From NCBI GenBank assembly GCA_002440965.1, contig DJWJ01000019.1:8119-72118 (forward strand): a DNA stretch of 64,000 bases. The letters run 5' to 3'. Position 1 is the first letter of the stretch. Every line of letters starts with the position of its first letter. The notes beneath the pieces are model-generated. The model made no database searches, had not been told where the DNA came from, and saw only the letters and a list, made by a program, of their open reading frames with translations. The DNA is from Candidatus Omnitrophica bacterium UBA6233 (lineage in GTDB: Bacteria; Omnitrophota; Gorgyraeia; Gygaellales; Profunditerraquicolaceae). This document shows positions 5,397 to 41,265 of this stretch, one piece after another. A program made the position numbers and the translations under genes.

Positions 5397-6488
5397 CTAC
5401 CGCAATAATCCCATTGCCGCCTCAAACACCGCGTCAACAGTTACCTGTTTTAAACACTCCTTATCCTTGCCGCAAACCGGAAGCTTGAAATCCCTGTAAC
5501 ACGGCCGGCATTCCACATCCCATTTTAATACCGGATGGTTCTTCTTATCGGGATACGGACCGTAAACCAACTCACTGACCGGGCCGAAAACCGAAACAGT
5601 TTTTACACCCAAAGCGCAAGCCATATGCATCGGGCCGCCATCATTGGATATTAAAAGATTAAGATTCCTGATTACTGCCGGAAGTATTTCTAACTTAACC
5701 TTACCGGTTAAATCTACCGGCTTATGGGCCATAGCATTAATAATTACTTCGGAAATTGGCTGCTCGGTTTCATCGCCTAAAACTATTATTTTTGCCTTAA
5801 ATTCAGCAGCGAGCCTATCCGCCACCTGCGCAAACTTCAATGCCGGCCAGTGCTTATAAACGGCATCCTTTCCCCAACTTCCTCCTGCTCCGGCGGCAAT
5901 TCCTATTACCAAATCTCCTTTTTCAATCCCCCTGGCCGCAAGCATATTTTGCGCCTTTGACTCGGCTTGGGCAGAAACCATCAGCTCCAAAGGCCTGTTT
6001 TTTGCTTCGAGCTGCAAAAAACGCAGCAAATCCAGATAGTATTCGACTACGTGTTTACCGCTATAAGAAACTAAATCTATTTTGTCCGTAAGGAATCCAC
6101 CCCTATTTTTATAATTAAACCCTACGCGCTTACGGATACCTATAATTTTCGCAAATAAACTATAGCGATAGTCCAAGGAAAAGTCAAAGCAAATATTAAA
6201 GTTACATTTTTTAATCTCCCGCCCGAGTTTTAAGGCCTCTTTCAGCCCGGCAAAAAATGACTCTTGATATATCTTCTTGAGGTCGCCGCGGTTTAAACCG
6301 AAAAGCCGGTTGATTTTAAGGCTTGCTTCCAGTAATGGCCGCACTCTTCTATTGCACCAATACCCAATAAAACAATCCGGGTATTTTTCTCTCAGAGCAC
6401 TTATTAACGGAGTGGTAAATAAAACATCCCCGATGCCAAAAGGATTAATAATCAATATCCTTTTATTTCCGCTACCTGTTGAAATCAT
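5397..6488 (-). CDS. Glycosyltransferase family 9 (ADP-heptose:LPS heptosyltransferase-like)
   Basis: 363 aa; RILIINPFGIGDVLFTTPLI N-term and GGPMHMACALGVKTVSVFGP C-term motifs characteristic of GT9. Confidence 0.7.
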   Translation of the reverse strand: MISTGSGNKRILIINPFGIGDVLFTTPLISALREKYPDCFIGYWCNRRVRPLLEASLKINRLFGLNRGDLKKIYQESFFAGLKEALKLGREIKKCNFNICFDFSLDYRYSLFAKIIGIRKRVGFNYKNRGGFLTDKIDLVSYSGKHVVEYYLDLLRFLQLEAKNRPLELMVSAQAESKAQNMLAARGIEKGDLVIGIAAGAGGSWGKDAVYKHWPALKFAQVADRLAAEFKAKIIVLGDETEQPISEVIINAMAHKPVDLTGKVKLEILPAVIRNLNLLISNDGGPMHMACALGVKTVSVFGPVSELVYGPYPDKKNHPVLKWDVECRPCYRDFKLPVCGKDKECLKQVTVDAVFEAAMGLLR

Positions 6489-8017: not shown

Positions 8018-8572
8018 TTAAAATTCGGATTGCAGCATCTTAATCCTTAATACGCTTATCTTCGCTCTTTCTTTCTTTCTTTCTTTTGACACAATTAGTT
8101 TATGTAAAGCGAAAACTGCCGGATGGGGCAGATTAATTCTTAAACTGCCAATTTTAACATTAATAAGCTTACTTGTAAGCAAGTTAAGATATCTAAGCCT
8201 CTGGGCGTTAACACCAAGTTCGGGTAATTTAAACGGCTGGTCTAAACCTGCTCCTTTTTCCGAAACTAAAAATTCCAAAACAAGATCAGGATGCTCTAAT
8301 TTTATATATCCTTGCGGCCCCTTAAAACCAAGGATAAAACCAAGATCTTTCAATAAATCTTCCAAATCAACCTTGGCTTTTATACCTAATGGCAATGGAA
8401 CAAGCAAATCAACATCTCTAGTTGTTATAGAGGTGACATACTTTGACCCGGAGAAATATTCCTTATAGAAGGGAATGCACCAGCTTCCAACAAGAACCAG
8501 ATTTTTTAACGCCCCCACTTTATCTAATCTGCTTAAAACCTCAATGCACAAATCATACTGACTGTTTTCCAC
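8018..8572 (-). CDS. Nucleotidyltransferase-fold protein (Pol-beta-like NTase, possible toxin/Abi-type)
   Basis: 184 aa; GS-x9-DxD motif (SGSKYVTSITTRDVD) typical of minimal nucleotidyltransferases; no homology to glycan genes around it. Confidence 0.4.
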   Translation of the reverse strand: MENSQYDLCIEVLSRLDKVGALKNLVLVGSWCIPFYKEYFSGSKYVTSITTRDVDLLVPLPLGIKAKVDLEDLLKDLGFILGFKGPQGYIKLEHPDLVLEFLVSEKGAGLDQPFKLPELGVNAQRLRYLNLLTSKLINVKIGSLRINLPHPAVFALHKLIVSKERKKERAKISVLRIKMLQSEF

Positions 8573-8870
8573 GCAAAGAACTCCTCAAAAACTTGATTTG
8601 TTTTCGTAATTTGGATAAATATCCCCTGTATTTAGTTCTATAAAATTTCACATCTTTATAGCGTTTAATTTCAACAGGAGACAACTTTCCTTTATAGCGA
8701 AATTTAACTTTCCCATTCTCTCTTGAAATAACATAAAAATATTCATGCCCCTTGACCTTTTTCTTTATTAGGCTGCCTTTTGGCAGCTTAGCTAACTCCC
8801 TTAAATAATCTTTTTCCATTTGAAGGGAATTATTTAACTCTTCTCTTAACACATTCTTGATCGTACCCAT
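8553..8870 (-). CDS. Small highly basic hypothetical protein (105 aa), overlaps downstream NTase gene by 20 nt
   Basis: Lys/Arg-rich ORF (KKKVKGHEYFYVISRENGKVKFRYKGK), translationally coupled with 8018..8572; function unknown. Confidence 0.3.
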   Translation of the reverse strand: MGTIKNVLREELNNSLQMEKDYLRELAKLPKGSLIKKKVKGHEYFYVISRENGKVKFRYKGKLSPVEIKRYKDVKFYRTKYRGYLSKLRKQIKFLRSSLRGKQSV

Positions 8871-30816: not shown

Positions 30817-32639
30817 AGAGGTATTATTTCGCGCAATTTCTTAACCGTTGCCGCCCCGTCCATTACGCCTGCCGTTCTTTCCAGCTCCTTGATTTTGCGC
30901 CTTAAGACGCGCGGGTCAAAAGAATCCGACTGGGCAATATAAATCTTATCCGCCTTGGTAGCTTTGTCTTTTTCGCTATTTAACAAGGTCTCCTCAAAAA
31001 GCTTTTCTCCCGGGCGCAAGCCGATAAACTTTATCTTTATGTCTTCTTCGGGCTTTAAGCCATAAAGAGCAATCAACTCTTTGGCTAAATCCAATATCTT
31101 AATCTGCTCGCCCATATCCAAAATAAATATTTCTCCCGCTTTAGCCATAGCTCCGGCCTGCAAAACAAGCTGGCTGGCTTCATTAATGCTCATAAAATAC
31201 CTTTTGACTTCGGGATGAGTCAGGGTTACCGGGCCGCCTTCTTCGATTTGTTTCTTGAATAACGGAACAACGCTTCCGTCAGAACCCAAAACATTCCCAA
31301 ACCTAACCGCCATAAATTTAGTTTTGCTCATCCTAGCCTTAGACTGCAAAACCATCTCCGCTACCCTTTTAGTAATACCCATAACACTCTTGGGGTTTAC
31401 CGCCTTATCCGTAGAAATAAAGATAAACCTTTCCACTTTGTAATGATCCGAGGCATAAATAAGGTTCCGGCTTCCGATAATATTATTTTTTACCGCTGCC
31501 GCGGGATTCTCCTCCATAAGAGGAACATGCTTATGGGCTGCCGCGTGGAATACAACTTGCGGCTTGTAAAGCGAAAACACCTTCTTTAACAAACCAATGT
31601 CTCTGATATCCCCAATGATGGTCTTAAACTTAATCTTCGGGTATTTTGTCAGAAATTCAATACCCAAATAATAGACATTGTTCTCATTGTGGTCGAATAA
31701 CAAGATTTCCCTAGGGCTAAAATTCATTATCTGCCTGCAAAGAGACGAACCGATTGAGCCGCCAGCGCCGGTAACTAAAACCACTTTATCAAATAAATAA
31801 TCCTTAATCTCTTTTTCATCGATATTTACCGTTTCTCTGCCCAAAAGGTCTTCCGGTTTAATATCCCGGGGCTTAACTTCCAAATCGCCATTAAGTATCT
31901 TTTGCAAACCCGGGACTATCCGGATTTTCACAGAAGGTATCTGGCAACGCGAAATGATATTCCTGATTACTTCGCCTTTGGCAGAAGGAATGGCTATGAT
32001 GATTTCGTCAATTCCGTATTTTTCGACAATCGAAGCGATATCGTTACAGGCTCCCAAAATACCCACGCCTTGAATACGCAAATTCTTTTTGTTCCTATCA
32101 TCGTCAATAAAACCGATAATCTCCATATTTGTGTTGGGATTAATCCTGGCCTCTCTTAACACCATTACACCGGCTTCTCCCGCCCCGATAATGATAGCCC
32201 TCTTCCGTTTGCTTTCCAGAACAGGACGGAACTTTTCCCGGAATAACCGCGTAACGAAACGGATCCCGGCGACAAAACAAAAACTTATGACACCATCCAA
32301 GATAAAGACCGAGCGCGGGAAACCATTAAAATAAGGGATGAAAACAACCACGGCGGTAAAACAGAATATGGCTAGAATATGCGCTTTGATTATTCTCCAG
32401 ATATCATCTATACTGGCGTATCTCCATAAACCGGAATAAAGGCCAAAATACCCGAAAATAATCATTTTGATAGCGGCAAAAACCGGGAGGGTTTTGATAA
32501 TTACCTGCCAAGAGCTGTTGTCAATTTTAAAATCCAACCGCAGGTAAAAAGCGAGGATATAGGCGCAAATCACCAAGGCCAAATGAATGGTTATGATAAT
32601 CAGGCGCCGGGATTTAAAGATTAATTCCTTTAGGTTCAT
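30813..32639 (-). CDS. Membrane-anchored NDP-sugar 4,6-dehydratase (CapD/WbpM/PglF family)
   Basis: 608 aa; 4 N-terminal TM helices, two Rossmann domains (AIIIGAGEAG; VLVTGAGGSIGSSL), YxxxK region. Confidence 0.8.
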   Translation of the reverse strand: MNLKELIFKSRRLIIITIHLALVICAYILAFYLRLDFKIDNSSWQVIIKTLPVFAAIKMIIFGYFGLYSGLWRYASIDDIWRIIKAHILAIFCFTAVVVFIPYFNGFPRSVFILDGVISFCFVAGIRFVTRLFREKFRPVLESKRKRAIIIGAGEAGVMVLREARINPNTNMEIIGFIDDDRNKKNLRIQGVGILGACNDIASIVEKYGIDEIIIAIPSAKGEVIRNIISRCQIPSVKIRIVPGLQKILNGDLEVKPRDIKPEDLLGRETVNIDEKEIKDYLFDKVVLVTGAGGSIGSSLCRQIMNFSPREILLFDHNENNVYYLGIEFLTKYPKIKFKTIIGDIRDIGLLKKVFSLYKPQVVFHAAAHKHVPLMEENPAAAVKNNIIGSRNLIYASDHYKVERFIFISTDKAVNPKSVMGITKRVAEMVLQSKARMSKTKFMAVRFGNVLGSDGSVVPLFKKQIEEGGPVTLTHPEVKRYFMSINEASQLVLQAGAMAKAGEIFILDMGEQIKILDLAKELIALYGLKPEEDIKIKFIGLRPGEKLFEETLLNSEKDKATKADKIYIAQSDSFDPRVLRRKIKELERTAGVMDGAATVKKLREIIPL

Positions 32640-33005
32640 AACCAGATATTATATATCAAAATACAGCTTTAGCAATTAGTTATGCGATTTTTTTACATTG
32701 TCATTATGGTTGGCACAGGGCCAATTAGGTTATAATGAGCTTAAAAAACAAAGTGGATTTATATGTCAAGGCTATTTAAGAAATGCAATGACCGCGATAT
32801 TTTTTAAGTACAATAGCACCAAACATCTCGGACTAGGCTCTTTTATAATGGCTTCTATATAAGGCAATTTAGGCGATAATTTTTAAAGTATAGTCGCAAT
32901 AAATTGGCATTATATAGGAATTGAGGCTTTTGCAGAAACAGATAAAGCACGCGTCTACCGTAAAAGAGATAATATGCGGTATGTTGTTAGGAAATTTTGC
33001 TGTAG

Positions 33006-33533
33006 TTAATTCAGGGGGGTTTTTATCTTTAGCGTTTTCTCAATATCTTTTAAAAGAAGATACAGGTGGAATTGGTCAATTGGTGAGCGCTCAAAACCAA
33101 AATGCTCATAAAAAGATCTGGCTGGTTCATCTTTGGCATGCACTACAATAGCTCTTCCACCGATGCTATCGGCTGCATAGGTAACCCGCAGCAAAGCCTC
33201 TCGCAACAAAGCCTTTCCTATGCCGACGCCTTGTTCGGTTTTATCAACAGCAAGCCGCGCGAGAATGATAACTGGAATAGGGTAATCAGCCAGCCCTTTT
33301 CCTACGCGTAGAGGGGCCTCCTGCTTGCCTACAGAACCAATGGTTAGCGTATAATATCCTACGACTTTATTATTTCTGATTGTTACGTATGTTTTTGAGG
33401 AACCATTTTGGTTATTAATAATTGCGTATTTTTTAAGATACGAATTGAGGGCTTCGTTACGGCAGTCAAATTCACTAATGGAATGTGATCTTTGGAGTAA
33501 AGTGGGAGTGCTTAAAGAAAGCTTCCTACTCAT
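33006..33533 (-). CDS. GNAT-family acetyltransferase toxin (TacT/AtaT/KacT-like, partner of DUF1778 antitoxin)
   Basis: 175 aa; LARLAVDKTEQGVGIGKALL acetyl-CoA motif; 8-nt overlap with upstream antitoxin. Confidence 0.7.
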   Translation of the reverse strand: MSRKLSLSTPTLLQRSHSISEFDCRNEALNSYLKKYAIINNQNGSSKTYVTIRNNKVVGYYTLTIGSVGKQEAPLRVGKGLADYPIPVIILARLAVDKTEQGVGIGKALLREALLRVTYAADSIGGRAIVVHAKDEPARSFYEHFGFERSPIDQFHLYLLLKDIEKTLKIKTPLN

Positions 33534-33801
33534 TAAAAATATCCGGCCCCTTAAAGAGGTTTTTTAGCTTTGGAATTTCGCGAGCCGGACTATCCAATGC
33601 CTCGCAGAAAGCCTTCCACTGTGGTTCAGGCAGTTGGAAATTGTTCCTATCAGCCATTAATTCTTCCGCTTCTTTCATTGCGCTTTCAAGAATAAATGCA
33701 GATAGCTTTTTTTGGCGTAGCGAAGCCACATACATAAGGAATCTTTTTTTCCTGCTGTCGATACGGAAGTCAATCCGTGTATTTTTCTGTATTGTTGCCA
33801 T
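33526..33801 (-). CDS. DUF1778/TacA-family antitoxin (RHH-like)
   Basis: Start at Met16 of track ORF (MATIQKNTRIDFRIDSRKKRFL...): ATG 33799-33801 preceded by AAGGAGGT RBS. Confidence 0.65.
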   Translation of the reverse strand: MATIQKNTRIDFRIDSRKKRFLMYVASLRQKKLSAFILESAMKEAEELMADRNNFQLPEPQWKAFCEALDSPAREIPKLKNLFKGPDIFNE

Positions 33802-33827
33802 ATTTCTTACCTCCTTTACCCAATAAA

Positions 33828-33855
33828 AATATAACATATTGTACACACATTGTCA
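33828..33855 (-). promoter_or_regulatory. Sigma70-type promoter of GNAT TA operon with TGTGTACA palindrome (putative autoregulatory operator)
   Basis: On minus strand TTGACA-16 nt-TATATT, ~30 nt upstream of antitoxin ATG. Confidence 0.5.
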
Positions 33856-33882
33856 ACACAAAGTTTTTACATTGCGATTTTT

Positions 33883-34446
33883 TTAATGCCGGACGCCTTC
33901 TTTGCGGATAACTTTTATTGCGGTCAAGAAAAGAATACGGAGATCGAAGGCAAAGGAGAGATGATTTAGATAATATTCATCGAAGGAAACCTTTACGGGA
34001 ATCGGCAGGTCATCCCTGCCGTTGACCTGGGCCCAACCGGTGATACCGGGAGTAAGCTTATAGACCCCATTATCCGTCCTTAAGGCGACAAGGTCATCCT
34101 GATTAAACAAAGCCGGGCGCGGCCCGACAAAACTCATATCTCCCTTTAAAATATTGAACAACTGCGGAAGTTCATCGAGGCTGGATTTACGCAAAAACCC
34201 GGAGCCGGGAATCAAATACTTTTCAGGATTTTCCATCAAATGCGTGGCTACCTGGGGCGTATTTAATTTCATTGTCCTGAACTTAGCCATTTTAAAAATG
34301 GTATTGTTTGCGCCAACGCGATCCGTCCAAAAAATAGCCGGCCCCTTAGACATTAGCTTAATGAATAAGGCGATAACTAACATCGGAACGCTCAATAGAA
34401 TTATTAATGCTAAAGCCAAGATTAAATCAAAAATTCGTTTCATCAT
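33883..34446 (-). CDS. Initiating undecaprenyl-phosphate sugar phosphotransferase, small type (PglC/WbaP-C-terminal family)
   Basis: MKRIFDLILALALIILL... single TM then FRTM...DELPQLFNILKGDMSFVGPRP catalytic motif. Confidence 0.8.
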   Translation of the reverse strand: MMKRIFDLILALALIILLSVPMLVIALFIKLMSKGPAIFWTDRVGANNTIFKMAKFRTMKLNTPQVATHLMENPEKYLIPGSGFLRKSSLDELPQLFNILKGDMSFVGPRPALFNQDDLVALRTDNGVYKLTPGITGWAQVNGRDDLPIPVKVSFDEYYLNHLSFAFDLRILFLTAIKVIRKEGVRH

Positions 34447-34481
34447 ATCACTAATACATTCCAAGATATTAGCTACGCTGT

Positions 34482-35297
34482 CTATCTTACTTTAATTCTT
34501 TTAGTTTGCCCTAAGAAATTGTCTCTTGAAACAATAGGCCTTCTTATCCTTTTTTCCAACTGTTTTCTGGCATTACCGGCGATATCTCCTCCTGCTTTGG
34601 CATCGGATTTAAGCTTCGGCACGCCTTGCGAATCTTCAACGCGATGGATTTCGGTAGTTGATCTTTCTCCAAGCATTGTAAAAATAAGCTCAAAATCGTC
34701 CATATGGTCGCGTAGATTTTCACGTTTTAACCGTTTTATCTTTTTATACTGGCTAGGCGTAATTCCAAAAGTGGCTTTAGAGATTTCTGCCGTTAAAATT
34801 TCATAATCCTTTTGTTCTTGCGCCCCGCGTTTCTGCCATTCATCCGTAAGTTCTTCCCGAATGGCAATGCCCCGTATCCGTTTTTCAATCCAGCTATCGG
34901 GATATCCTTTGAGCTTATAGAGCATCCTTGTTCGCTTGGTTGCCAATTCCGGGTCTTCTATCTCTTTAATACGTTCATAACCAACTTTAGCCAACCACCG
35001 CTTAAATGGCTCGGCTTTAGGAGATGGAATTGACTGAACAATACGAAAAATGCCTTCGGTATTGGCGCAATTCAGCTTTTGAGGCCCTCCTGCCGTCTTA
35101 ATCAAAAGGGGGGTGGCAAATTGCCCCCACCCTTTGGACAACTCCGGATCCCTTCTACGCATATCCTTTATGTACCCATCAGGCTGCACCGAATCCGTAA
35201 GTACCGCCACTACATCATTAATCACAAACCACCATTCATTATTATGAATGGTTTTACGCACCTTTTGCCCCTTAAATACTGCTATTTTTGTTTCCAT
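34482..35297 (-). CDS. Bro-N domain protein (phage antirepressor/DinD-like)
   Basis: 271 aa; N-terminal IAVFKGQKVRKTIHNNEWWFVINDVVAVL resembles Bro-N/DinD family. Confidence 0.55.
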   Translation of the reverse strand: METKIAVFKGQKVRKTIHNNEWWFVINDVVAVLTDSVQPDGYIKDMRRRDPELSKGWGQFATPLLIKTAGGPQKLNCANTEGIFRIVQSIPSPKAEPFKRWLAKVGYERIKEIEDPELATKRTRMLYKLKGYPDSWIEKRIRGIAIREELTDEWQKRGAQEQKDYEILTAEISKATFGITPSQYKKIKRLKRENLRDHMDDFELIFTMLGERSTTEIHRVEDSQGVPKLKSDAKAGGDIAGNARKQLEKRIRRPIVSRDNFLGQTKRIKVR

Positions 35298-35413
35298 ATC
35301 GCCCTTCTCCTTTCTCGCGTTATTATTATTTACCCTCTACTATAATTGACGCAAGAAAAGGCCAAATCTAACATTTATTTCTCAATACTAAACCCCTTTA
35401 ACCATCCCCTGAT

Positions 35414-35462
35414 CCCATCCTTGCAGGGTGAAGGGCGGGGGGAGCAGCCAAACAGCTTACCT
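35414..35462. repeat. Copy A of recurring GC-rich intergenic motif (CCATCCTTGCAGGGTGAAGGGCGGGG + AGCCAAACAGCTTACC tail)
   Basis: Direct comparison with copies B-D. Confidence 0.7.
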
Positions 35463-36634
35463 TATAATATCTTTCCCGACCATAGTTGCTGCAAAAAAAT
35501 CTCCCATGGTGATATTTCTATTTTACCGTGCAGCCTTTTCTCCTTTTCATTACAGACTACTATGCTTTTTTTTGGAGAACACGATTGGATAAAAGCCTCT
35601 AGCCCATTCATATCTTTTCCGTCAATCCGAGCAGATCCTTTTACCTCTATAGCAACCTCCCCCTGGCCCAGGACAAAATCAACCTCAAGCCCCGACTTGG
35701 TCCTCCAGAAATTTATCGCAAAGTCCTTACCCGCGTAAGATCTATAAGCAATCATCTCCATAAGCAAGAAATGTTCGAACGCCTTACCAAATTCCGCTCC
35801 TTTTTGTTCGGCTAAATGCCTCTTTGTCAGGTAACCGGCGACACCAACATCAAACATATAATATTTCGAGGCTTTTGTTATAACCTGCCGGGATTGCCTT
35901 TTCTTAAAAGGCTCTACCCTTACAGCCAACAGCGTATCTATAAGTATCTGGTAATACTCTTTGACCGTCTTGGAATCGACACCGCATTCGCGGGCAATAT
36001 TACAATAATTCGTTATCTCGCCATGCGAGTAGCCGAAAGCGTCAAAAAATCTTGAAAACGCGGGAATATTACGTGTCAGGCCTTCAGCAAAAACCTCTTC
36101 ACGTAAATAATCCTGCACATAAGCCTCTAAAGATTTTTTACAATCTATGCCGCTTTGCAAATAATGAAACGGAATCAGGCCATGATTTAAAGCGCGCAAC
36201 AAATCAAATTTTGTAATCTCCCGGCTGACAAGCGGAAAAAGCTCATAACGCCATGCCCTGCCTCCCAGCAGATTCGCGTGGCCTTTTTTTAATTTTCTTG
36301 CGCTTGAACCGCAAAGCACAAAACTCAAACCCTTATTTTCTATCAACCAGTGCACTTCGTCGAGCACTTGCGGAACTTTTTGCACTTCATCGAGTATTAC
36401 CGGTTCTTTAAGCACAACCTCGTCTTTTGCGAGTAACTGTTCGCGCAAAAGCGAGGGATTTTTTGATATTTCAAAAAATAAATCCGTTTTTAGAAAATCA
36501 TACACCACGCTATTGGGAAATCTTTCTTTCAGATATGTGGATTTGCCTGTCTTTCTGGCTCCCCATAAAAACGCGGATTGGCGATGCGGAAGCCGCATAA
36601 CCAGTTTTCTTGGGATATTTTTCATTTGTATCAT
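35462..36634 (-). CDS. COG1373-type AAA+ ATPase (AAA_14 + DUF4143)
   Basis: 390 aa; Walker A GARKTGKST, Walker B ILDEVQ. Confidence 0.65.
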   Translation of the reverse strand: MIQMKNIPRKLVMRLPHRQSAFLWGARKTGKSTYLKERFPNSVVYDFLKTDLFFEISKNPSLLREQLLAKDEVVLKEPVILDEVQKVPQVLDEVHWLIENKGLSFVLCGSSARKLKKGHANLLGGRAWRYELFPLVSREITKFDLLRALNHGLIPFHYLQSGIDCKKSLEAYVQDYLREEVFAEGLTRNIPAFSRFFDAFGYSHGEITNYCNIARECGVDSKTVKEYYQILIDTLLAVRVEPFKKRQSRQVITKASKYYMFDVGVAGYLTKRHLAEQKGAEFGKAFEHFLLMEMIAYRSYAGKDFAINFWRTKSGLEVDFVLGQGEVAIEVKGSARIDGKDMNGLEAFIQSCSPKKSIVVCNEKEKRLHGKIEISPWEIFLQQLWSGKIL

Positions 36635-36660
36635 CCTCCGGATTAGTATTACTAATTAGG

Positions 36661-36689
36661 AGTATATACCATTTTAGTTAGAGCGTCAA
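36661..36689 (-). promoter_or_regulatory. Near-consensus sigma70 promoter for ATPase gene 35462..36634
   Basis: Minus strand TTGACG-17 nt-TATACT (contains palindrome GTATATAC), 27 nt upstream of ATG. Confidence 0.5.
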
Positions 36690-36696
36690 GGCTTTT

Positions 36697-36750
36697 CCCC
36701 CATCTTGCAGAGTCAAGGGCGGGGTAAGAGCCTTTCTTTAACCTTACCTA
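36697..36750. repeat. Copy B of recurring GC-rich motif (CCCCATCTTGCAGAGTCAAGGGCGGGG + ...AACCTTACC)
   Basis: Alignment to copies A, C, D. Confidence 0.7.
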
Positions 36751-37934
36751 TTGAGGAGTCCGGCAAGAAATAGCGGCCGCTTTATACCAACCATATTATA
36801 GCCATCAGCAAAGATAATTTTTGTTTTGATACCCATACCCTTGAACTGGCTTCTCCCCTTGCCCTTACCGCCAACTTCAAAGACGATATCTTGCGAATCA
36901 CGAATAAGATAATCCGGCGTTTTTGCCCCGCGCATAGACTTAAGATAAAAAACTTCTTTGCCTAAGGCCCTAAACGCTTCCACAAAAAAATCCTCCCGCA
37001 AGCCACCGATAGCCTCATCAAACGGTTTATACAAAAGACGATACGGCAAAGCCATGACAACCTTAGGCTCCTTCATCACATTGCTCCCCATTGGGAAAAT
37101 CCGATGCAAAACAAAAGCCCGTTCCAAAAGCGTAATATACTGTTCAGCTTTATACTTGGTAATATGAACATTCTGTGACACCGAGGAATAGTTGATTCCG
37201 TCAACCCCTGAGCGCCCAATAAAACGGACAAGCTGTTCTATCTTTTCCAGCTCACCGGTCAGGAGCCTGGCGATATGAGGGATATCTTTACGAATAATCG
37301 TTTTGAGGATGTTTTCTAAAAGCGCCAGGGGCTGCGGTTCCCGCAAAGCGAATGGCATAAGGCCACCCTGGATATACGATAAAAAATGTTCTCCCGCCCT
37401 AAAAACATCCGCGGGGATCTTTCCCTCAACAATATTCTGGATGGTTAAGACGGTAAACTCCTGCCCATATTTGAATTTCGCGTACTCCCGCAACGAAAAA
37501 GGATAAAGGGTTTTGAGCAGGACACGCCGCGATAAATCGTAACCCGATTCATACATCCCTAATGCCGTAGAACTGGTGAAGATCACCCTGATGTCAAAAA
37601 CATCGTAGAGTTTCTTGAGGTCGGCTTCAAAACGGGGATAAACATGCACTTCATCCAACAAAAACAACCTTATCCGCATCGTTTCATGCAAAGCCTTAAC
37701 GAGATCAAAAAGATCACCCTCCATAGCATCCAGGGATACATAAAAAGACCCTTCATTTGCCAGGGCCAGTTGTTTAAGCATGATCGTCTTGCCTGCTCCG
37801 CGCGGCCCAACGATTCCAATAAAATGAGCTCCGGCATCCCGAGTAATGTCGTCATAAAGCTCACGCTTTTTATCGTATTTCTGTCCATCTTTCTTGGCCA
37901 GACGGTCAAATTCAAGCAATTGATTGATATTCAT
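36744..37934 (-). CDS. COG1373-type AAA+ ATPase (AAA_14 + DUF4143), divergent paralog
   Basis: 396 aa; Walker A GPRGAGKT, Walker B LLDEVH. Confidence 0.55.
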   Translation of the reverse strand: MNINQLLEFDRLAKKDGQKYDKKRELYDDITRDAGAHFIGIVGPRGAGKTIMLKQLALANEGSFYVSLDAMEGDLFDLVKALHETMRIRLFLLDEVHVYPRFEADLKKLYDVFDIRVIFTSSTALGMYESGYDLSRRVLLKTLYPFSLREYAKFKYGQEFTVLTIQNIVEGKIPADVFRAGEHFLSYIQGGLMPFALREPQPLALLENILKTIIRKDIPHIARLLTGELEKIEQLVRFIGRSGVDGINYSSVSQNVHITKYKAEQYITLLERAFVLHRIFPMGSNVMKEPKVVMALPYRLLYKPFDEAIGGLREDFFVEAFRALGKEVFYLKSMRGAKTPDYLIRDSQDIVFEVGGKGKGRSQFKGMGIKTKIIFADGYNMVGIKRPLFLAGLLNR

Positions 37935-37969
37935 CTTATCTTTCTATTTTACTGTTACAAGTATATCAC

Positions 37970-37997
37970 AAATATACATTCTGTCAAATTGTTTTAT
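37970..37997 (-). promoter_or_regulatory. Near-consensus sigma70 promoter with GTATAT-N5-ATATAC palindrome for ATPase gene 36744..37934
   Basis: Minus strand TTGACA-16 nt-TATACT; palindrome GTATATCACAAATATAC overlaps spacer/-10; near-identical module at 39034-39062. Confidence 0.5.
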
Positions 37998-38083
37998 GGA
38001 ATGCTTATCATTACAGATAATTCCTATCGCTAATGCAGCTAATTTTTATTTTACGCTTTCATGCCCCCTAGCCATCTCCCTAA

Positions 38084-38130
38084 TCCCCTCTTGCAGGATG
38101 AAGGGCGGGGGACAGCCAAGAAAACGCTAT
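38084..38130. repeat. Copy C of recurring GC-rich motif (CCCTCTTGCAGGATGAAGGGCGGGGG + ACAGCCAAG)
   Basis: Alignment to copies A, B, D. Confidence 0.7.
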
Positions 38131-38133
38131 CTG

Positions 38134-38493
38134 TTATTCCGCTAATTCTTTTTCTTTTAATATTTTGTAATTTGTTTTAAAGTAGGTATTGAATATTACC
38201 CGGAAACTATTGTAGGGAGATATCGCAGGCCAGACAACTTCGCAACTTTTACCCGGCAGGTAATAAGCATTAAGGATGGATAATTTGGTGTTTTCGCTAT
38301 ATTTACCACGCCTATATCCATGGTCGCCTTGAAGAACAATAATCGGTTTTTTTACAGATTTAAGAAGAATCTCGTCAATAACTTCTAATATCAGCTTATT
38401 AGTTCCTAACACCTGTTCTATATAAGCGGAACTATCCATCATCCCCTTTCGTTTCCACAAAGGTATAACATTGGCATCCCGGTCAAAAATCAA
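38134..38493 (-). pseudogene. C-terminal remnant of an alkaline-phosphatase-superfamily sulfatase/phosphoethanolamine- or phosphoglycerol-transferase
   Basis: 119-aa ORF containing IIVLQGDHGYRRG, which matches the conserved C-terminal metal-site motif (xxGDHG) of sulfatase/LtaS/EptA enzymes; N-terminal ~400 aa catalytic and membrane parts absent. Confidence 0.4.
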
Positions 38494-38515
38494 TGGTTCA
38501 TGAGGAGTATACTGC

Positions 38516-38788
38516 CTAATTTATGTTTCTATATACCGAGGCTCGAGAGGCAATCAAAGTAACAAAAACTTTATTCTTCTCTTTGTCAATCCCGTAAATC
38601 GCGCGGTAATCACCTACCCGGTATCTATAACGCCTCTTCTCACCCTTTAGCACCTTTATATTCGGGCCCCAGAAAGGATTACTTTCAAGCTCCTCAAAAC
38701 ACTTATTTAACCTTTTTGCCAGCTCTTCCGGGCAAGACTTATAGGACTTAAGCGCAGCCGGCATCAAAAGGACTTCAAAATTACCCAC
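38516..38788 (-). CDS. RelE/ParE-family type II toxin
   Basis: 90 aa; RYRVGDYRAIYGIDKEKNKVFVTLI typical RelE/ParE fold signature; overlaps antitoxin by 8 nt. Confidence 0.6.
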   Translation of the reverse strand: MGNFEVLLMPAALKSYKSCPEELAKRLNKCFEELESNPFWGPNIKVLKGEKRRYRYRVGDYRAIYGIDKEKNKVFVTLIASRASVYRNIN

Positions 38789-39014
38789 GCTTTACTTTTC
38801 TCCATCTGGTGCCTTTGCCTTTCAGGTATTGTCTTTCGCCCTCGGCAACAATCTTTTGCTCTGCCGAAGTAAGAGAGCCCTCTATCTGCTCAACAATCAA
38901 TTCCCGGACAAATGAGGACATTGACATATACCTCTTTTTGCAGATCTTAACTGTTTCGTTATAAAGCGAGGATGGCATTCTTATCAAAAGCTCTTTATTC
39001 ATAGTTACAGACAT
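38781..39014 (-). CDS. Ribbon-helix-helix (CopG-like) antitoxin
   Basis: Start at Met32 of track ORF (MSVTMNKELLIRMPSSLYNETVKI...), ATG 39012-39014 preceded by GGAGGTGA RBS. Confidence 0.5.
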   Translation of the reverse strand: MSVTMNKELLIRMPSSLYNETVKICKKRYMSMSSFVRELIVEQIEGSLTSAEQKIVAEGERQYLKGKGTRWRKVKRG

Positions 39015-39033
39015 TTTTATCACCTCCGAAGAA

Positions 39034-39062
39034 AGTATATCATAGTGATATACTTTTGTCAA
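39034..39062 (-). promoter_or_regulatory. Consensus sigma70 promoter with GTATATCACTATGATATAC palindromic operator for RelE/RHH operon
   Basis: Minus strand TTGACA-17 nt-TATACT; perfect 8/8 palindrome arms spanning spacer and -10. Confidence 0.6.
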
Positions 39063-39154
39063 GCGGCATCCGTTACCCTCTCCATAGTCCGTATACAAGG
39101 TGCCCAACGGCCAGACGAAGAGCCCAAGCTGCGCGGCAATCCGTTAGCTTTTAA

Positions 39155-39200
39155 TGGTTCCTCTAATCCCCTCTTCCAGCGTAAACGGCGGCTTCCAGCC
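39155..39200. repeat. Copy D (degenerate) of recurring motif (TAATCCCCTCTTCCAGCGTAAACGGCGGCTTCCAGCCAAG)
   Basis: Shares TAATCCCCTCTT-CAG and AGCCAAG blocks with copy C. Confidence 0.5.
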
Positions 39201-39286
39201 AAGCAAATTCCTGATTTTTTTGCTATCAACGACAGAATTCCTGTCCCACGAGAATCCACATGTTATGATGTACCTCTCTCCTAATG

Positions 39287-40438
39287 CTACTCATGACTCA
39301 CCCGCTGCTGGAGCAAACTCTTTGCCGCACTAATGACAGAACTAACCTCTATAGCCATCATGCAAAGGCTTACGAACTCATTTCCGAGTGGCGACAAATA
39401 AGGACAATCAGGTACTATTGCTCTTTCAATATCTATACAAGGGCTACAAGATGCTCCTTTATAGAGTACGACCGCACTCTTGGAAAACGGCCGATACCGA
39501 TTGGGAGAGTTTGGGCCAAAAAGCCCAATTACCCCTGCCCCTTGGGCGGCTGCCAAATGCATTGGCCCTGTATCATTGGCCACCACTAGCTTAACAACCG
39601 AAAACAATGAAATTAGCTGCCTGATATTTGTCTTCCCCGCTAGGTTGTTTACTTTTAACCGATATCTTGGCTCGACACTATTGACCAGATCATCGCAAAG
39701 TTTAACTTCGGCCTTACTTCCAGTTATACTAACGTTTAGCCCTTGCTCATCAATAATCCACTTAGCCAATTTAGCAAAGCAACTGACAGGCCATCTTCGG
39801 CCCAACCCGGTGTTACCCGACCCAGGATGCAAAACTACCTGAACATTTAACGACCTTGCCCATTCAACATTTTCAGCATCACATGGCAATGATACTAATC
39901 CATCTAGATCCTGCTCTATTCCACAAGGTTTAAGCAATTGAACGAAATTAAGTGCCGCATGTATGGAAGAATTGAATAAAACTGAAGTTGTTGAACCTAT
40001 ATGTTTACACTGTCGGTCTGAATGAAACGCGACGCGATGGGGCGCATTTGTCGCTCGCGCGCATAATGCTGAAATCCTGGCAAACTGTTCAAAATCAACA
40101 CACATTTCATAGCGAGACCTCCACAGCATCGCAACTAGAGAGCAAAAACGCCAGATTTCACTTTCTTTAAAAAGAATTACATTATCAACCCACGAAGCAG
40201 AAGCTGCGATTTCATATCCTTCCCCCGTTGTAAGAAAATCAATCTGATAGTCTGGGAATTTTTCCTTGAACAACTTAACTCCCGACATGATTAGGACAAC
40301 ATCACCCATACCATACAATTTAATAAACAAAACCCTTCGGCTGTGGATCTTTCGTGGTGGCATAAACCGCAGGACGCTGCATATCAGAAAAAGCAACGGC
40401 ACTCCCACCCAGTAATCCAGTAACTTACGTAATTTCAT
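39287..40438 (-). CDS. Glycosyltransferase family 9 (heptosyltransferase-like)
   Basis: 383 aa; NDTGPMHLAAAQGAGVIGLFGPN motif. Confidence 0.65.
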   Translation of the reverse strand: MKLRKLLDYWVGVPLLFLICSVLRFMPPRKIHSRRVLFIKLYGMGDVVLIMSGVKLFKEKFPDYQIDFLTTGEGYEIAASASWVDNVILFKESEIWRFCSLVAMLWRSRYEMCVDFEQFARISALCARATNAPHRVAFHSDRQCKHIGSTTSVLFNSSIHAALNFVQLLKPCGIEQDLDGLVSLPCDAENVEWARSLNVQVVLHPGSGNTGLGRRWPVSCFAKLAKWIIDEQGLNVSITGSKAEVKLCDDLVNSVEPRYRLKVNNLAGKTNIRQLISLFSVVKLVVANDTGPMHLAAAQGAGVIGLFGPNSPNRYRPFSKSAVVLYKGASCSPCIDIERAIVPDCPYLSPLGNEFVSLCMMAIEVSSVISAAKSLLQQRVSHE

Positions 40439-40503
40439 TTGATTGCGACATTAAGTATCTTACTAAAAGCATTTTTAATTAAAGCCTTGCCCACCCGTTC
40501 TTC

Positions 40504-41265
40504 TCAATTTTCTGAGTGTCCAGTAAAATAGTTCGTTTCAAGCGAAGCATATTTAGACCACTCTAAAAATTCAGTTTTATATTCGTTAACTTTTCGAATA
40601 CAATAAAATGATGCGACAGACATGGTTGGAAATAGTTTTGACAACAATCTTGAAATTATTTTAGGGAATGGATAAAATTGTGCGCCATAAAAATGCTCTA
40701 ATTTACAGAAACCCACTCCTATATTTCTATAAAATAGGACAACGTCTCTTTTAGAAAATACACGGACATGTGCTGACATTAGTTGATTGCACGTTGGATG
40801 ATACCCTAGCATCATAAGAATACGGTTATGTAAGGACAAAATATTAGGAACACCCATAAAAAAAATCCCGTTTTTTTTCAAACACCTAAACACCTCATGG
40901 TTTATCCAGAATATTTCTTTTGTATGTTCCAAGAATTGATTAGATATTATAAAATCAACAGATTCATCTTCAAATGGTAATTTATCATTTTCAATATTTA
41001 TTACAATCGGTTTGATACCAAGTGATCTCAATTTATCCGCATTCCATGAACCAAAATCTACTCCGTAAAGTTCAGCGCCGGGGTAATATTGTTTTACAAT
41101 AGACAAATCGTATCCGAGACCACATCCAATATCTATGACCTTCCCCAGCTTAGAAACGTTAATCTTCTTAACAATGTTTTCAAGAATGTGTCTACCACTT
41201 GTCTCTGTATGGTCCACGACTTTTAATCTACTTGTAGAACCTGGGATAACATTTTTAAAGAACAT
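40504..41265 (-). CDS. Class I SAM-dependent methyltransferase (type 11)
   Basis: 253 aa; VIDIGCGLGYDL motif I, FDFIISNQFLEH motif. Confidence 0.6.
   Translation of the reverse strand: MFFKNVIPGSTSRLKVVDHTETSGRHILENIVKKINVSKLGKVIDIGCGLGYDLSIVKQYYPGAELYGVDFGSWNADKLRSLGIKPIVINIENDKLPFEDESVDFIISNQFLEHTKEIFWINHEVFRCLKKNGIFFMGVPNILSLHNRILMMLGYHPTCNQLMSAHVRVFSKRDVVLFYRNIGVGFCKLEHFYGAQFYPFPKIISRLLSKLFPTMSVASFYCIRKVNEYKTEFLEWSKYASLETNYFTGHSEN

Follow-up and report, generated by a model that had tools for sequence, protein, structure and literature searches.

Do two promoters that look alike, lie near each other and read in the same direction answer to one repressor? The question is raised by a 64,000-nucleotide stretch of contig DJWJ01000019.1 from Candidatus Omnitrophica bacterium UBA6233 (the whole of it hereafter called the window), in which one such promoter precedes a toxin-antitoxin (TA) operon encoding a ribbon-helix-helix (RHH) antitoxin and a ParE toxin, and the other precedes a COG1373 ATPase gene (ATPase 2). 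A preliminary description of this DNA treated the two as a duplicated promoter/operator module and proposed that a single repressor, most plausibly the RHH antitoxin, co-regulates the ATPases and the TA operon. Our comparative analysis points elsewhere. The look-alike promoters probably belong to two independent, self-contained modules which have come to lie side by side by chance, in a part of a glycan-biosynthesis locus that is variable. This reading is built on where the modules were seen to end, on what is conserved in them and on their failure to co-occur, with repressor binding and mechanism inferred. According to it, the TA operon is of the ordinary autoregulated kind, and ATPase 2 is a separate candidate-defence cassette whose consensus promoter resembles that of the operon.

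Anatomy of the look-alike promoters

The promoters in question, together with that of a second ATPase gene (ATPase 1), are as follows.

39034..39062, minus strand: RHH-ParE promoter, TTGACAAAAGTATATCACTATGATATACT, with -35 TTGACA at 39062-39057, a 17-nt spacer and the extended -10 TGATATACT at 39042-39034
37960..37987, minus strand: ATPase 2 promoter, TTGACAGAATGTATATTTGTGATATACT, with -35 TTGACA at 37987-37982, a 16-nt spacer and the extended -10 TGATATACT at 37968-37960
36661..36689, minus strand: ATPase 1 promoter, TTGACG-N17-TATACT, in which GTATATAC (36669-36662) is not conserved

As read on the minus strand, the RHH-ParE promoter is TTGACA-AAAGTATATCACTATGA-TATACT (39062-39034) and the ATPase 2 promoter is TTGACA-GAATGTATATTTGTGA-TATACT (37987-37960). 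Both indeed have the consensus -35 TTGACA, the -10 TATACT and a GTATAT...ATATAC palindrome over the spacer and the -10 box that had been attributed to them. The sequence reported for the ATPase 2 promoter is real as well, but it had been placed 10 bases off (37970-37997), and the palindrome itself lies at 37961-37977. The two palindromes of the form GTATAT-N5/7-ATATAC were likewise found, although the one at the TA operon is longer than had been claimed: it has 8-bp arms (GTATATCA-CTA-TGATATAC), and that of ATPase 2 has 6-bp arms (GTATAT-TTGTG-ATATAC, 37977-37961).

These two promoters contain the only copies of GTATAT-N3..9-ATATAC in the 64 kb (0.00 expected, none in 100 shuffles), and TTGACA-N15..19-TATACT also occurs twice in the window (0.02 expected). 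A promoter scan of positions 32500-41000 returned three promoters scoring 11/12 with a TG extension, those of RHH-ParE, ATPase 2 and TacAT, and these three top-scoring promoters of the 8.5-kb stretch all serve selfish or accessory modules. The promoter of TacA/TacT, whose toxin is of the GNAT type, lies at 33828-33856 (TTGACA-N17-TATATT, a near-perfect extended -10) and holds a short TGTACA palindrome in its spacer.

A TG at -15/-14, a TAnnnT-type -10 and a -35 at a distance of 16–18 nt were found in both the RHH-ParE and the ATPase 2 promoter, which are therefore predicted to be of the extended -10 sigma-70 type. The shared TGATATACT has the form TGnTATACT. As in known promoters of this type (TGnTATAAT), the TG stands one base upstream of the -10, the -35 is consensus and the spacer has 16–17 nt; unlike in them, the -10 reads TATACT, and its bases have a second role in the TA promoter as an arm of the predicted operator. 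It had been considered that the palindrome might turn out to be a common extended -10 element in this genome. This is so for half of it: the right arm is the extended -10, whereas the full palindrome, with merely two copies in 64 kb, was rejected as a common element.

The notion of a duplicated module did not hold. Apart from the -35, the -10 and the palindrome, the upstream regions of RHH-ParE and ATPase 2 could not be aligned, and therefore the promoters do not represent a duplicated DNA segment; segmental duplication was rejected. In addition, the spacing of the half-sites differs, being TATATC-N5-GATATA in the TA operator and TATATT-N3-GATATA at ATPase 2, i.e., 2 bp shorter. The third promoter had been assigned a shorter version of the palindrome. 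At ATPase 1 (36689-36661) the -10 TATACT is present, but the -35 is TTGACG, and GTATATAC consists of the -10 plus three bases and reads TAATATAC in the sole 82%-identical orthologue.

The RHH-ParE operon and its predicted operator

The TA operon and the sequences around it comprise the following features.

38504..39063, minus strand: complete TA module as conserved among loci, running between the -35 and a point approximately 12 nt beyond the ParE stop
39035..39053, palindromic: operator GTATATCA-CTA-TGATATAC, with the invariant core TATATC(A)-N3-TGATAT(AC), over spacer and -10
38781..39014, minus strand: RHH-type antitoxin, 77 aa, with the Shine-Dalgarno sequence GGAGGTG at 39027-39021
38516..38788, minus strand: ParE/RelE-superfamily toxin, with a GTG start overlapping the antitoxin stop and an alternative ATG at 38764
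38493-38134, minus strand: orphan open reading frame (ORF) between ParE and ATPase 2, without family match

The RHH protein has 158 database relatives, with identities of 74–100% among the 120 matches listed. For comparison of the TA operon, 44 loci were collected in a metagenome scan (RHH relatives down to 52% identity), which provided 40 distinct promoter sequences. In nearly all of these loci, nucleotide homology to the window starts at 39063-39064, the first base of the -35, and stops at 38516-38517, the ParE stop. In one 10-kb locus (L027), whose RHH protein is 97% identical, only 559 bp are common with the whole window (95% identity), and these are the TA module. With such sharp edges in the 44 loci and nothing beyond the module shared with L027, the TA operon together with its promoter is therefore a compact unit which occurs in unrelated contexts.

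The conservation pattern within this unit is that of an operator. Both arms, TATATC and TGATAT, carry 2.0 bits per column and do not vary in the 40 distinct promoters, and the -35 carries 1.0–1.8 bits; the central three bases of the operator and all sequence upstream of the -35 vary freely, and the spacing of the half-sites is constant in the 44 loci. Exactly one operator was found per TA locus, at the TA promoter, and no other in 170 kb. The earlier proposal that this palindrome serves as the binding site of the antitoxin thus fits well with an invariant site surrounded by variable flanks and a variable centre. At the N-terminus of the RHH protein, the segment MNKELLIRMP, where the DNA-reading strand is expected, is invariant or nearly so. 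We regard TATATCA-N3-TGATATA as an ordinary autoregulatory RHH operator, the binding itself being inferred.

Operators of this kind are known. In autoregulated RHH TA operons, the promoter of the operon itself has a palindromic operator which overlaps its -10 (PMC2812701, PMC10776004, PMC4803016). Judging from RelB, ParD and further antitoxins of this type, the two arms of the operator TATATCA-N3-TGATATA, which lies across the spacer and the -10 in this ParE/RHH type II TA operon (39063-38504), would be occupied by two RHH dimers that block RNA polymerase, so that the operon represses itself; ParE probably modulates this repression. Like RelBE, ParDE (RK2, Vibrio cholerae), CcdAB and FitAB, the operon has the antitoxin first, an overlapping stop/start and a small toxin of the ParE/RelE fold, and the antitoxin is predicted to combine an N-terminal RHH region with a C-terminal tail. 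Unlike in these systems, both the operator sequence and the antitoxin family are confined to Omnitrophota metagenomes, and no relative of the family has a solved structure. With TATATCA-N3-TGATATA, a cleanly defined predicted operator is now available for an RHH-ParE family that is widespread in Omnitrophota, a phylum in which genetics is almost absent.

The genes for RHH (39014-38781) and ParE (38788-38516) are co-directional, with the antitoxin first and an 8-nt overlap, and the pair is kept in the 44 loci. ParE matches Pfam ParE_toxin (E = 8.6e-9; 36.3 bits, cut-off 23); NCBIfam gave a weak match to RelE_StbE (E = 0.0058) and no informative names. The assignment of the antitoxin is less direct. 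No Pfam match was obtained for the window protein at E <= 0.01, and the best match in a laxer scan was DUF6290 (E = 0.018; 15.7 bits, cut-off 27). Among 24 family members scanned, RHH_1 was detected in 11 (best E = 7.6e-6), DUF6290 in 20, the window protein being one of them, and CopG_antitoxin in five. An AlphaFold2 (AF2) monomer model of low confidence (pLDDT 67) has helices at residues 15–27, 32–47 and 50–66, which correspond to two RHH helices and a C-terminal helix, but the ribbon segment was modelled as a helix. Confidence was too low for a fold search, and a search of the family profile against PDB sequences found nothing significant. It counts against our interpretation that the RHH assignment of the window protein comes from its family members and this low-confidence model. 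We also looked for carriage by phages; the operator-plus-Shine-Dalgarno pattern had no exact match in IMG/VR contigs.

What follows ParE differs among loci. In several of them (L027, L030, L034, L046 and L057 were compared) a GC-rich hairpin with a T-run (ccccgcttgacttcccgaaagggctcaggcggggtttt) stands behind the toxin gene. It is absent in the window, where from approximately 13 nt past the ParE stop the orphan ORF (38493-38134) takes the place of the hairpin and T-run; therefore, read-through from the TA operon into ATPase 2 is possible. If the terminator has been lost, TA transcripts might cross the 500-nt gap and contribute a TA-dependent part of ATPase 2 expression. Such a transcriptional link would agree with the hairpins present in several other loci, with the co-directionality of the two modules and with the lack of any predicted terminator-like site from 38516 to 37987 of the minus strand, although the scan was simple and insensitive and Rho-dependent termination may occur in the untranslated gap. 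Moreover, ATPase 2 has its own near-consensus promoter which is conserved with the gene. On balance, we consider a transcriptional link of this kind rather unlikely.

Two further contexts of the TA module were noted. In L063 (250-1860), RHH and operator are intact, but ParE has kept just a few codons at either end, leaving an orphan antitoxin; a different COG1373 ATPase lies downstream with its own promoter (TTGACA-N16-TAAAAT). This RHH-then-ATPase order was rejected as evidence for an operon, given the internal deletion of ParE and the separate promoter of the ATPase. In L084/L085 (3338-6735), the TA module follows a GT9 heptosyltransferase gene, as in the window, and its downstream neighbours are a DUF1016/YhcG nuclease gene and an AbiEii + helix-turn-helix (HTH) pair; other defence-type cassettes are found around it, and no COG1373 ATPases occupy that place.

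The ATPase 2 module and the case for a shared repressor

The ATPase genes and the second conserved palindrome are located as follows.

36744..37934, minus strand: ATPase 2 (AAA_14 + DUF4143, COG1373; PADLOC PDC-S01)
38000..38012, palindromic: AATGATAAGCATT (AATG-N5-CATT), approximately 13 nt upstream of the ATPase 2 -35 and belonging to the ATPase 2 module
35462..36625, minus strand: ATPase 1 (AAA_14 + DUF4143; PDC-S01)

ATPase 2 has more than 1300 relatives (73–92% identity among the 120 matches listed), and its surroundings were compared in 19 genome loci plus 7 more reached via close homologues. In at least 18 loci, the block of homology extends from approximately 38012-38022 to the stop codon at 36744. 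The locus L071 has 1278 bp in common with the window, which correspond to the ATPase 2 promoter and gene and nothing else. ATPase 2 is thus best described as a self-contained promoter-plus-gene unit, as judged from these homology edges. Exact boundaries of promoter plus gene are now defined for two mobile modules.

Promoters of ATPase 2 orthologues keep AATG-N5-CATT, GTAAAA, TTGACA, an ATG three bases past the -35 (nnATG) and TGnTATAyT. AATG-N5-CATT is kept in all orthologues, its centre is variable and is inverted in L019, and it could be the true regulatory site of the ATPase 2 promoter. The left arm of the spacer palindrome drifts, reading GCATAT, GTATGT, GTAGCT, GAGTAT, GATTAT, GTCTGT and others among the orthologues. 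Among 19 distinct ATPase 2 promoters, left and right arm pair at 6/6 positions in two, at 5/6 in five and at 4/6 or fewer in 12. The trinucleotide TGA, which turns the TGn into an operator half-site, occurs in 10 of 22 ATPase 2 loci. The spacer palindrome is therefore gone from most orthologues, whose genes are still 73–90% identical. These patterns suggest that the palindrome of ATPase 2 is made up, for the most part, of the extended -10 together with a left arm found only in the nearest relatives.

A regulon of the antitoxin would make different predictions. According to this proposal, the RHH protein binds its own promoter and the palindrome of ATPase 2, perhaps also that of ATPase 1, and the ATPases are TA-controlled effectors. 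The adjacency of the TA and ATPase 2 genes on the same strand and the fact that the sole two perfect GTATAT/ATATAC palindromes in 64 kb both overlap a -10 are in its favour, as is the half-site TGATATAC common to both promoters. There is also precedent: MqsA regulates unrelated promoters, rpoS, csgD and others (PMC4803016). The arm that is shared, however, is the extended -10, and the half-site spacing that is invariant in the 44 TA loci is 2 bp shorter at ATPase 2. Measured in the fixed register of the operator, the ATPase 2 site has 3/14 mismatches, and five such sites exist in the window against 6.35 expected; four further places in the window match at least as well, and the likeness is at chance level. 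Neither the left arm in ATPase 2 orthologues nor GTATATAC at ATPase 1 is conserved.

Co-occurrence was examined across contigs and 5–6 kb neighbourhoods at approximately 70 loci. A TA-type operator (with at most one mismatch) was absent from 215 kb around 26 ATPase 2 loci. Neither RHH nor ParE was detected within 6 kb of ATPase 2 in the 19 genome loci and 7 further loci, and ATPase 2 was absent from the 44 metagenome TA loci and 8 further ones. Matching of accessions for a genome carrying both modules led to JAKLQW and JAKLQT, which are different metagenome-assembled genomes (MAGs). It had been suggested that the palindrome be sought upstream of COG1373 ATPases in related genomes; no TA-type operator was found before those of L011, L014, L019, L020, L023, L025 and L063, which have unrelated near-consensus promoters instead. 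Thus each of the other COG1373 genes in the sampled loci has its own, different near-consensus promoter. The modules were never together in the other sampled loci, which speaks against a functional link between ATPases and TA operon.

Since the right arm is the extended -10, the left arm drifts, the spacing is shorter and the modules do not co-occur, co-regulation of ATPase 2 by the antitoxin is not supported, and neither is a single repressor for the ATPases and the TA operon. The case of MqsA resembles the present one in that an operator-like palindrome lies in a second promoter. It differs in that the ATPase 2 site departs from the operator in the family-invariant spacing, is not conserved with its target, and target and antitoxin are apart elsewhere. 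We therefore regard a regulon of the antitoxin as improbable. Had it been true, it would have tied the common, uncharacterised COG1373/PDC-S01 family to toxin-antitoxin control; the comparative evidence opposes this.

Several observations weigh against the view that two independent modules merely resemble each other. A perfect 6+6 palindrome at ATPase 2 is unlikely by chance for a single promoter, and it is retained in the closest orthologues (L008, L022 and L071). Furthermore, ATPase 2 matches the operator at 11 of 12 arm positions if a spacer shorter by 2 bp is allowed, and carries the exact 8-bp operator half-site TGATATAC. Because the palindrome persists in L008, L022 and L071, weak or lineage-specific binding by the RHH protein or another factor may still take place at the ATPase 2 site, and in this one genome, with its perfect palindrome and exact half-site, a shared repressor is improbable but conceivable.

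The other factor might be a protein of different origin. Under this explanation, the spacer palindrome of ATPase 2 would be an operator for the ATPase itself, bound through the winged-helix region in its DUF4143, or for a host factor which also recognises AATG-N5-CATT. The perfect palindrome in the window lineage is compatible with such an operator, and so is the strong conservation of AATG-N5-CATT just upstream of the -35 in all orthologues; weak matches to HTH families were also seen inside the DUF4143 region of ATPase paralogues. Yet the spacer palindrome has been lost in most orthologues with 73–90% identical genes, and no second copy of AATG-N5-CATT exists in the window. We give this explanation little credence.

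With two independent modules as the preferred reading, the second (approximately 38020-36744) would be a single-gene candidate defence ATPase (COG1373, PDC-S01) with its own promoter, composed of AATG-N5-CATT, the -35 and the extended -10. The resemblance between the promoters may then be traced to three sources: the consensus -35 in both; the same kind of extended -10 (TGATATACT), which would double as the right operator arm in the TA promoter; and a GTATAT left arm, present in the closest ATPase 2 relatives only and with a spacing 2 bp under that of the operator.

Both ATPases have the architecture AAA_14 + DUF4143 and match the PADLOC PDC-S01 models (E = 8e-47 and 5e-22). PDC-S01 has been described as a candidate for single-gene defence which is very common and whose validation is pending; its ATPase is fused to a PD-(D/E)xK domain (PMC12988326). 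No functional study was found in the literature on DUF4143 and COG1373. Like PDC-S01, each ATPase of the window is a single gene with its own promoter and, by profile, a candidate defence gene. The suggestion that the ATPases are TA-controlled effectors or defence genes thus fits as to defence, in that they are PDC-S01 candidates, and not as to TA control, in that they are autonomous single-gene units.

With regard to its leader, ATPase 2 of the window has 25 nt without an obvious Shine-Dalgarno sequence. In three orthologues (L015, approximately 5970-6003; L016, approximately 1477-1510; L023, approximately 5970-6003) the -10 hexamer ends 6 nt before the ATG, and therefore leaderless mRNAs are implied. 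In another contig with an ATPase 2 orthologue (L017; 710-9476 and 780-12584), six copies of a 76-nt imperfect-palindrome repeat and 4–5 copies of an approximately 108-nt promoter module (TTGACA-N17-TATATT with TG) were observed. The latter repeats would represent a genuine duplicated promoter module.

Accessory cassettes at epimerase 3' ends

The modules lie in a minus-strand glycan-biosynthesis locus which makes up nearly all of the 64 kb. Reading along the minus strand, the remaining features of this region are as follows.

40438-39287, minus strand: GT9 heptosyltransferase, the first gene, with the epimerase 3' fragment next
39144..39233, minus strand: epimerase 3'-end relic 1 (NAD-dependent epimerase; VVDSKKIRNLLGWKPPFTLEEGIRGTIKS*), upstream of the TA module
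38051..38119, minus strand: epimerase relic 2 (LGCPPPFILQEGIREMARGHESVK*), upstream of ATPase 2, common to L010 together with ATPase 2
36697..36724, minus strand: epimerase relic 3, the shortest (PPLTLQDG), abutting the ATPase 1 -35
35362..35451, minus strand: epimerase relic 4 with the native sequence that follows the epimerase, in front of the Bro-N gene
34482..35297, minus strand: Bro-N protein (PADLOC PDC-S13), the final cassette of the array

The array (35362-39233, minus strand) consists of the self-promoted RHH-ParE operon, the two PDC-S01 ATPases and the Bro-N gene, whose product matches PDC-S13 (E = 2.5e-107). Each of these is preceded by a relic, and the four relics are the last codons of an NAD-dependent epimerase gene (consensus LGWKPPFTLEEGIR). 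This cassette array is a more unusual feature of the locus than the likeness of the promoters.

The same relics occur elsewhere. L011 (1-8725) has eight copies among three COG1373 ATPases, a Gp49/HTH pair and two Bro-N genes, and two of its longer relic ORFs were confirmed with Pfam to stem from the C-terminal or a near-C-terminal part of an epimerase; two copies are found in L020 (1478-2756) and one in L010 (5824-5862). In L073 (5833-5903, 8145-8216), the ATPase 2 promoter comes directly after an intact epimerase gene, and another copy of the epimerase stands behind the ATPase. Relic length ranges from approximately 28 nt to the whole gene (up to approximately 540 nt as fragments), the junction after ...GGGAGACGGTT varies by up to approximately 25 nt, and the order of cassettes differs among Omnitrophota genomes. 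A comparable pattern, built on other local repeats, was seen in further loci. Recent preprints report that Omnitrophota have hypervariable polysaccharide loci, and also an integrative module with KilA-N proteins, two AAA ATPases and an epimerase (bioRxiv 10.64898/2026.05.20.726742, 10.64898/2026.06.07.730766).

Like integron arrays and defence-island hotspots, the array consists of tandem small accessory genes (TA, ATPases, Bro-N) with a recurring repeat between them and an order that differs by genome. Unlike in integrons, no integrase was found in the 64 kb: there was no Phage_integrase match, and the called genes and large ORFs belong to glycan synthesis or to cassettes. The repeat is a coding 3'-end relic of variable length rather than a constant-length attC, every cassette is self-promoted and the junctions vary by up to approximately 25 nt. 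An integron was rejected on these grounds (no integrase, no attC-like constant repeat, relics that are epimerase 3' fragments, self-promoted cassettes), single-strand folding of the repeats being left aside. A search of IMG/VR contigs gave no exact copy of the relic core.

Units of relic, promoter and gene seem to be shuffled in the array, as would be expected of a recombination hotspot. The shuffling might proceed by homologous recombination between relics or through a recombinase that has escaped notice. Such units stand in differing orders among genomes with no integrase nearby, and therefore exchange based on the relics is suggested. Tentatively, accessory cassettes may pile up at the epimerase 3' end in Omnitrophota glycan loci through an integron-like exchange by recombination between relics (circle excision and Campbell-type re-insertion) without a dedicated recombinase, an idea we put forward as conceivable rather than likely. 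Under this idea, the likeness of the promoters would be one sign of a wider process. A recurrent array at the epimerase 3' end may show small defence genes moving without a visible recombinase.

Beyond the Bro-N gene, a sugar transferase gene and then the TacA/TacT pair follow on the minus strand. Elsewhere within the glycan locus, a DUF6788 + NTP_transf_8 gene pair is located at approximately 8018-8870 of the window (L078, 20232-21084). This pair was also observed in the unrelated TA-bearing contig L084 (8282-9281), and may be another small two-gene accessory module.

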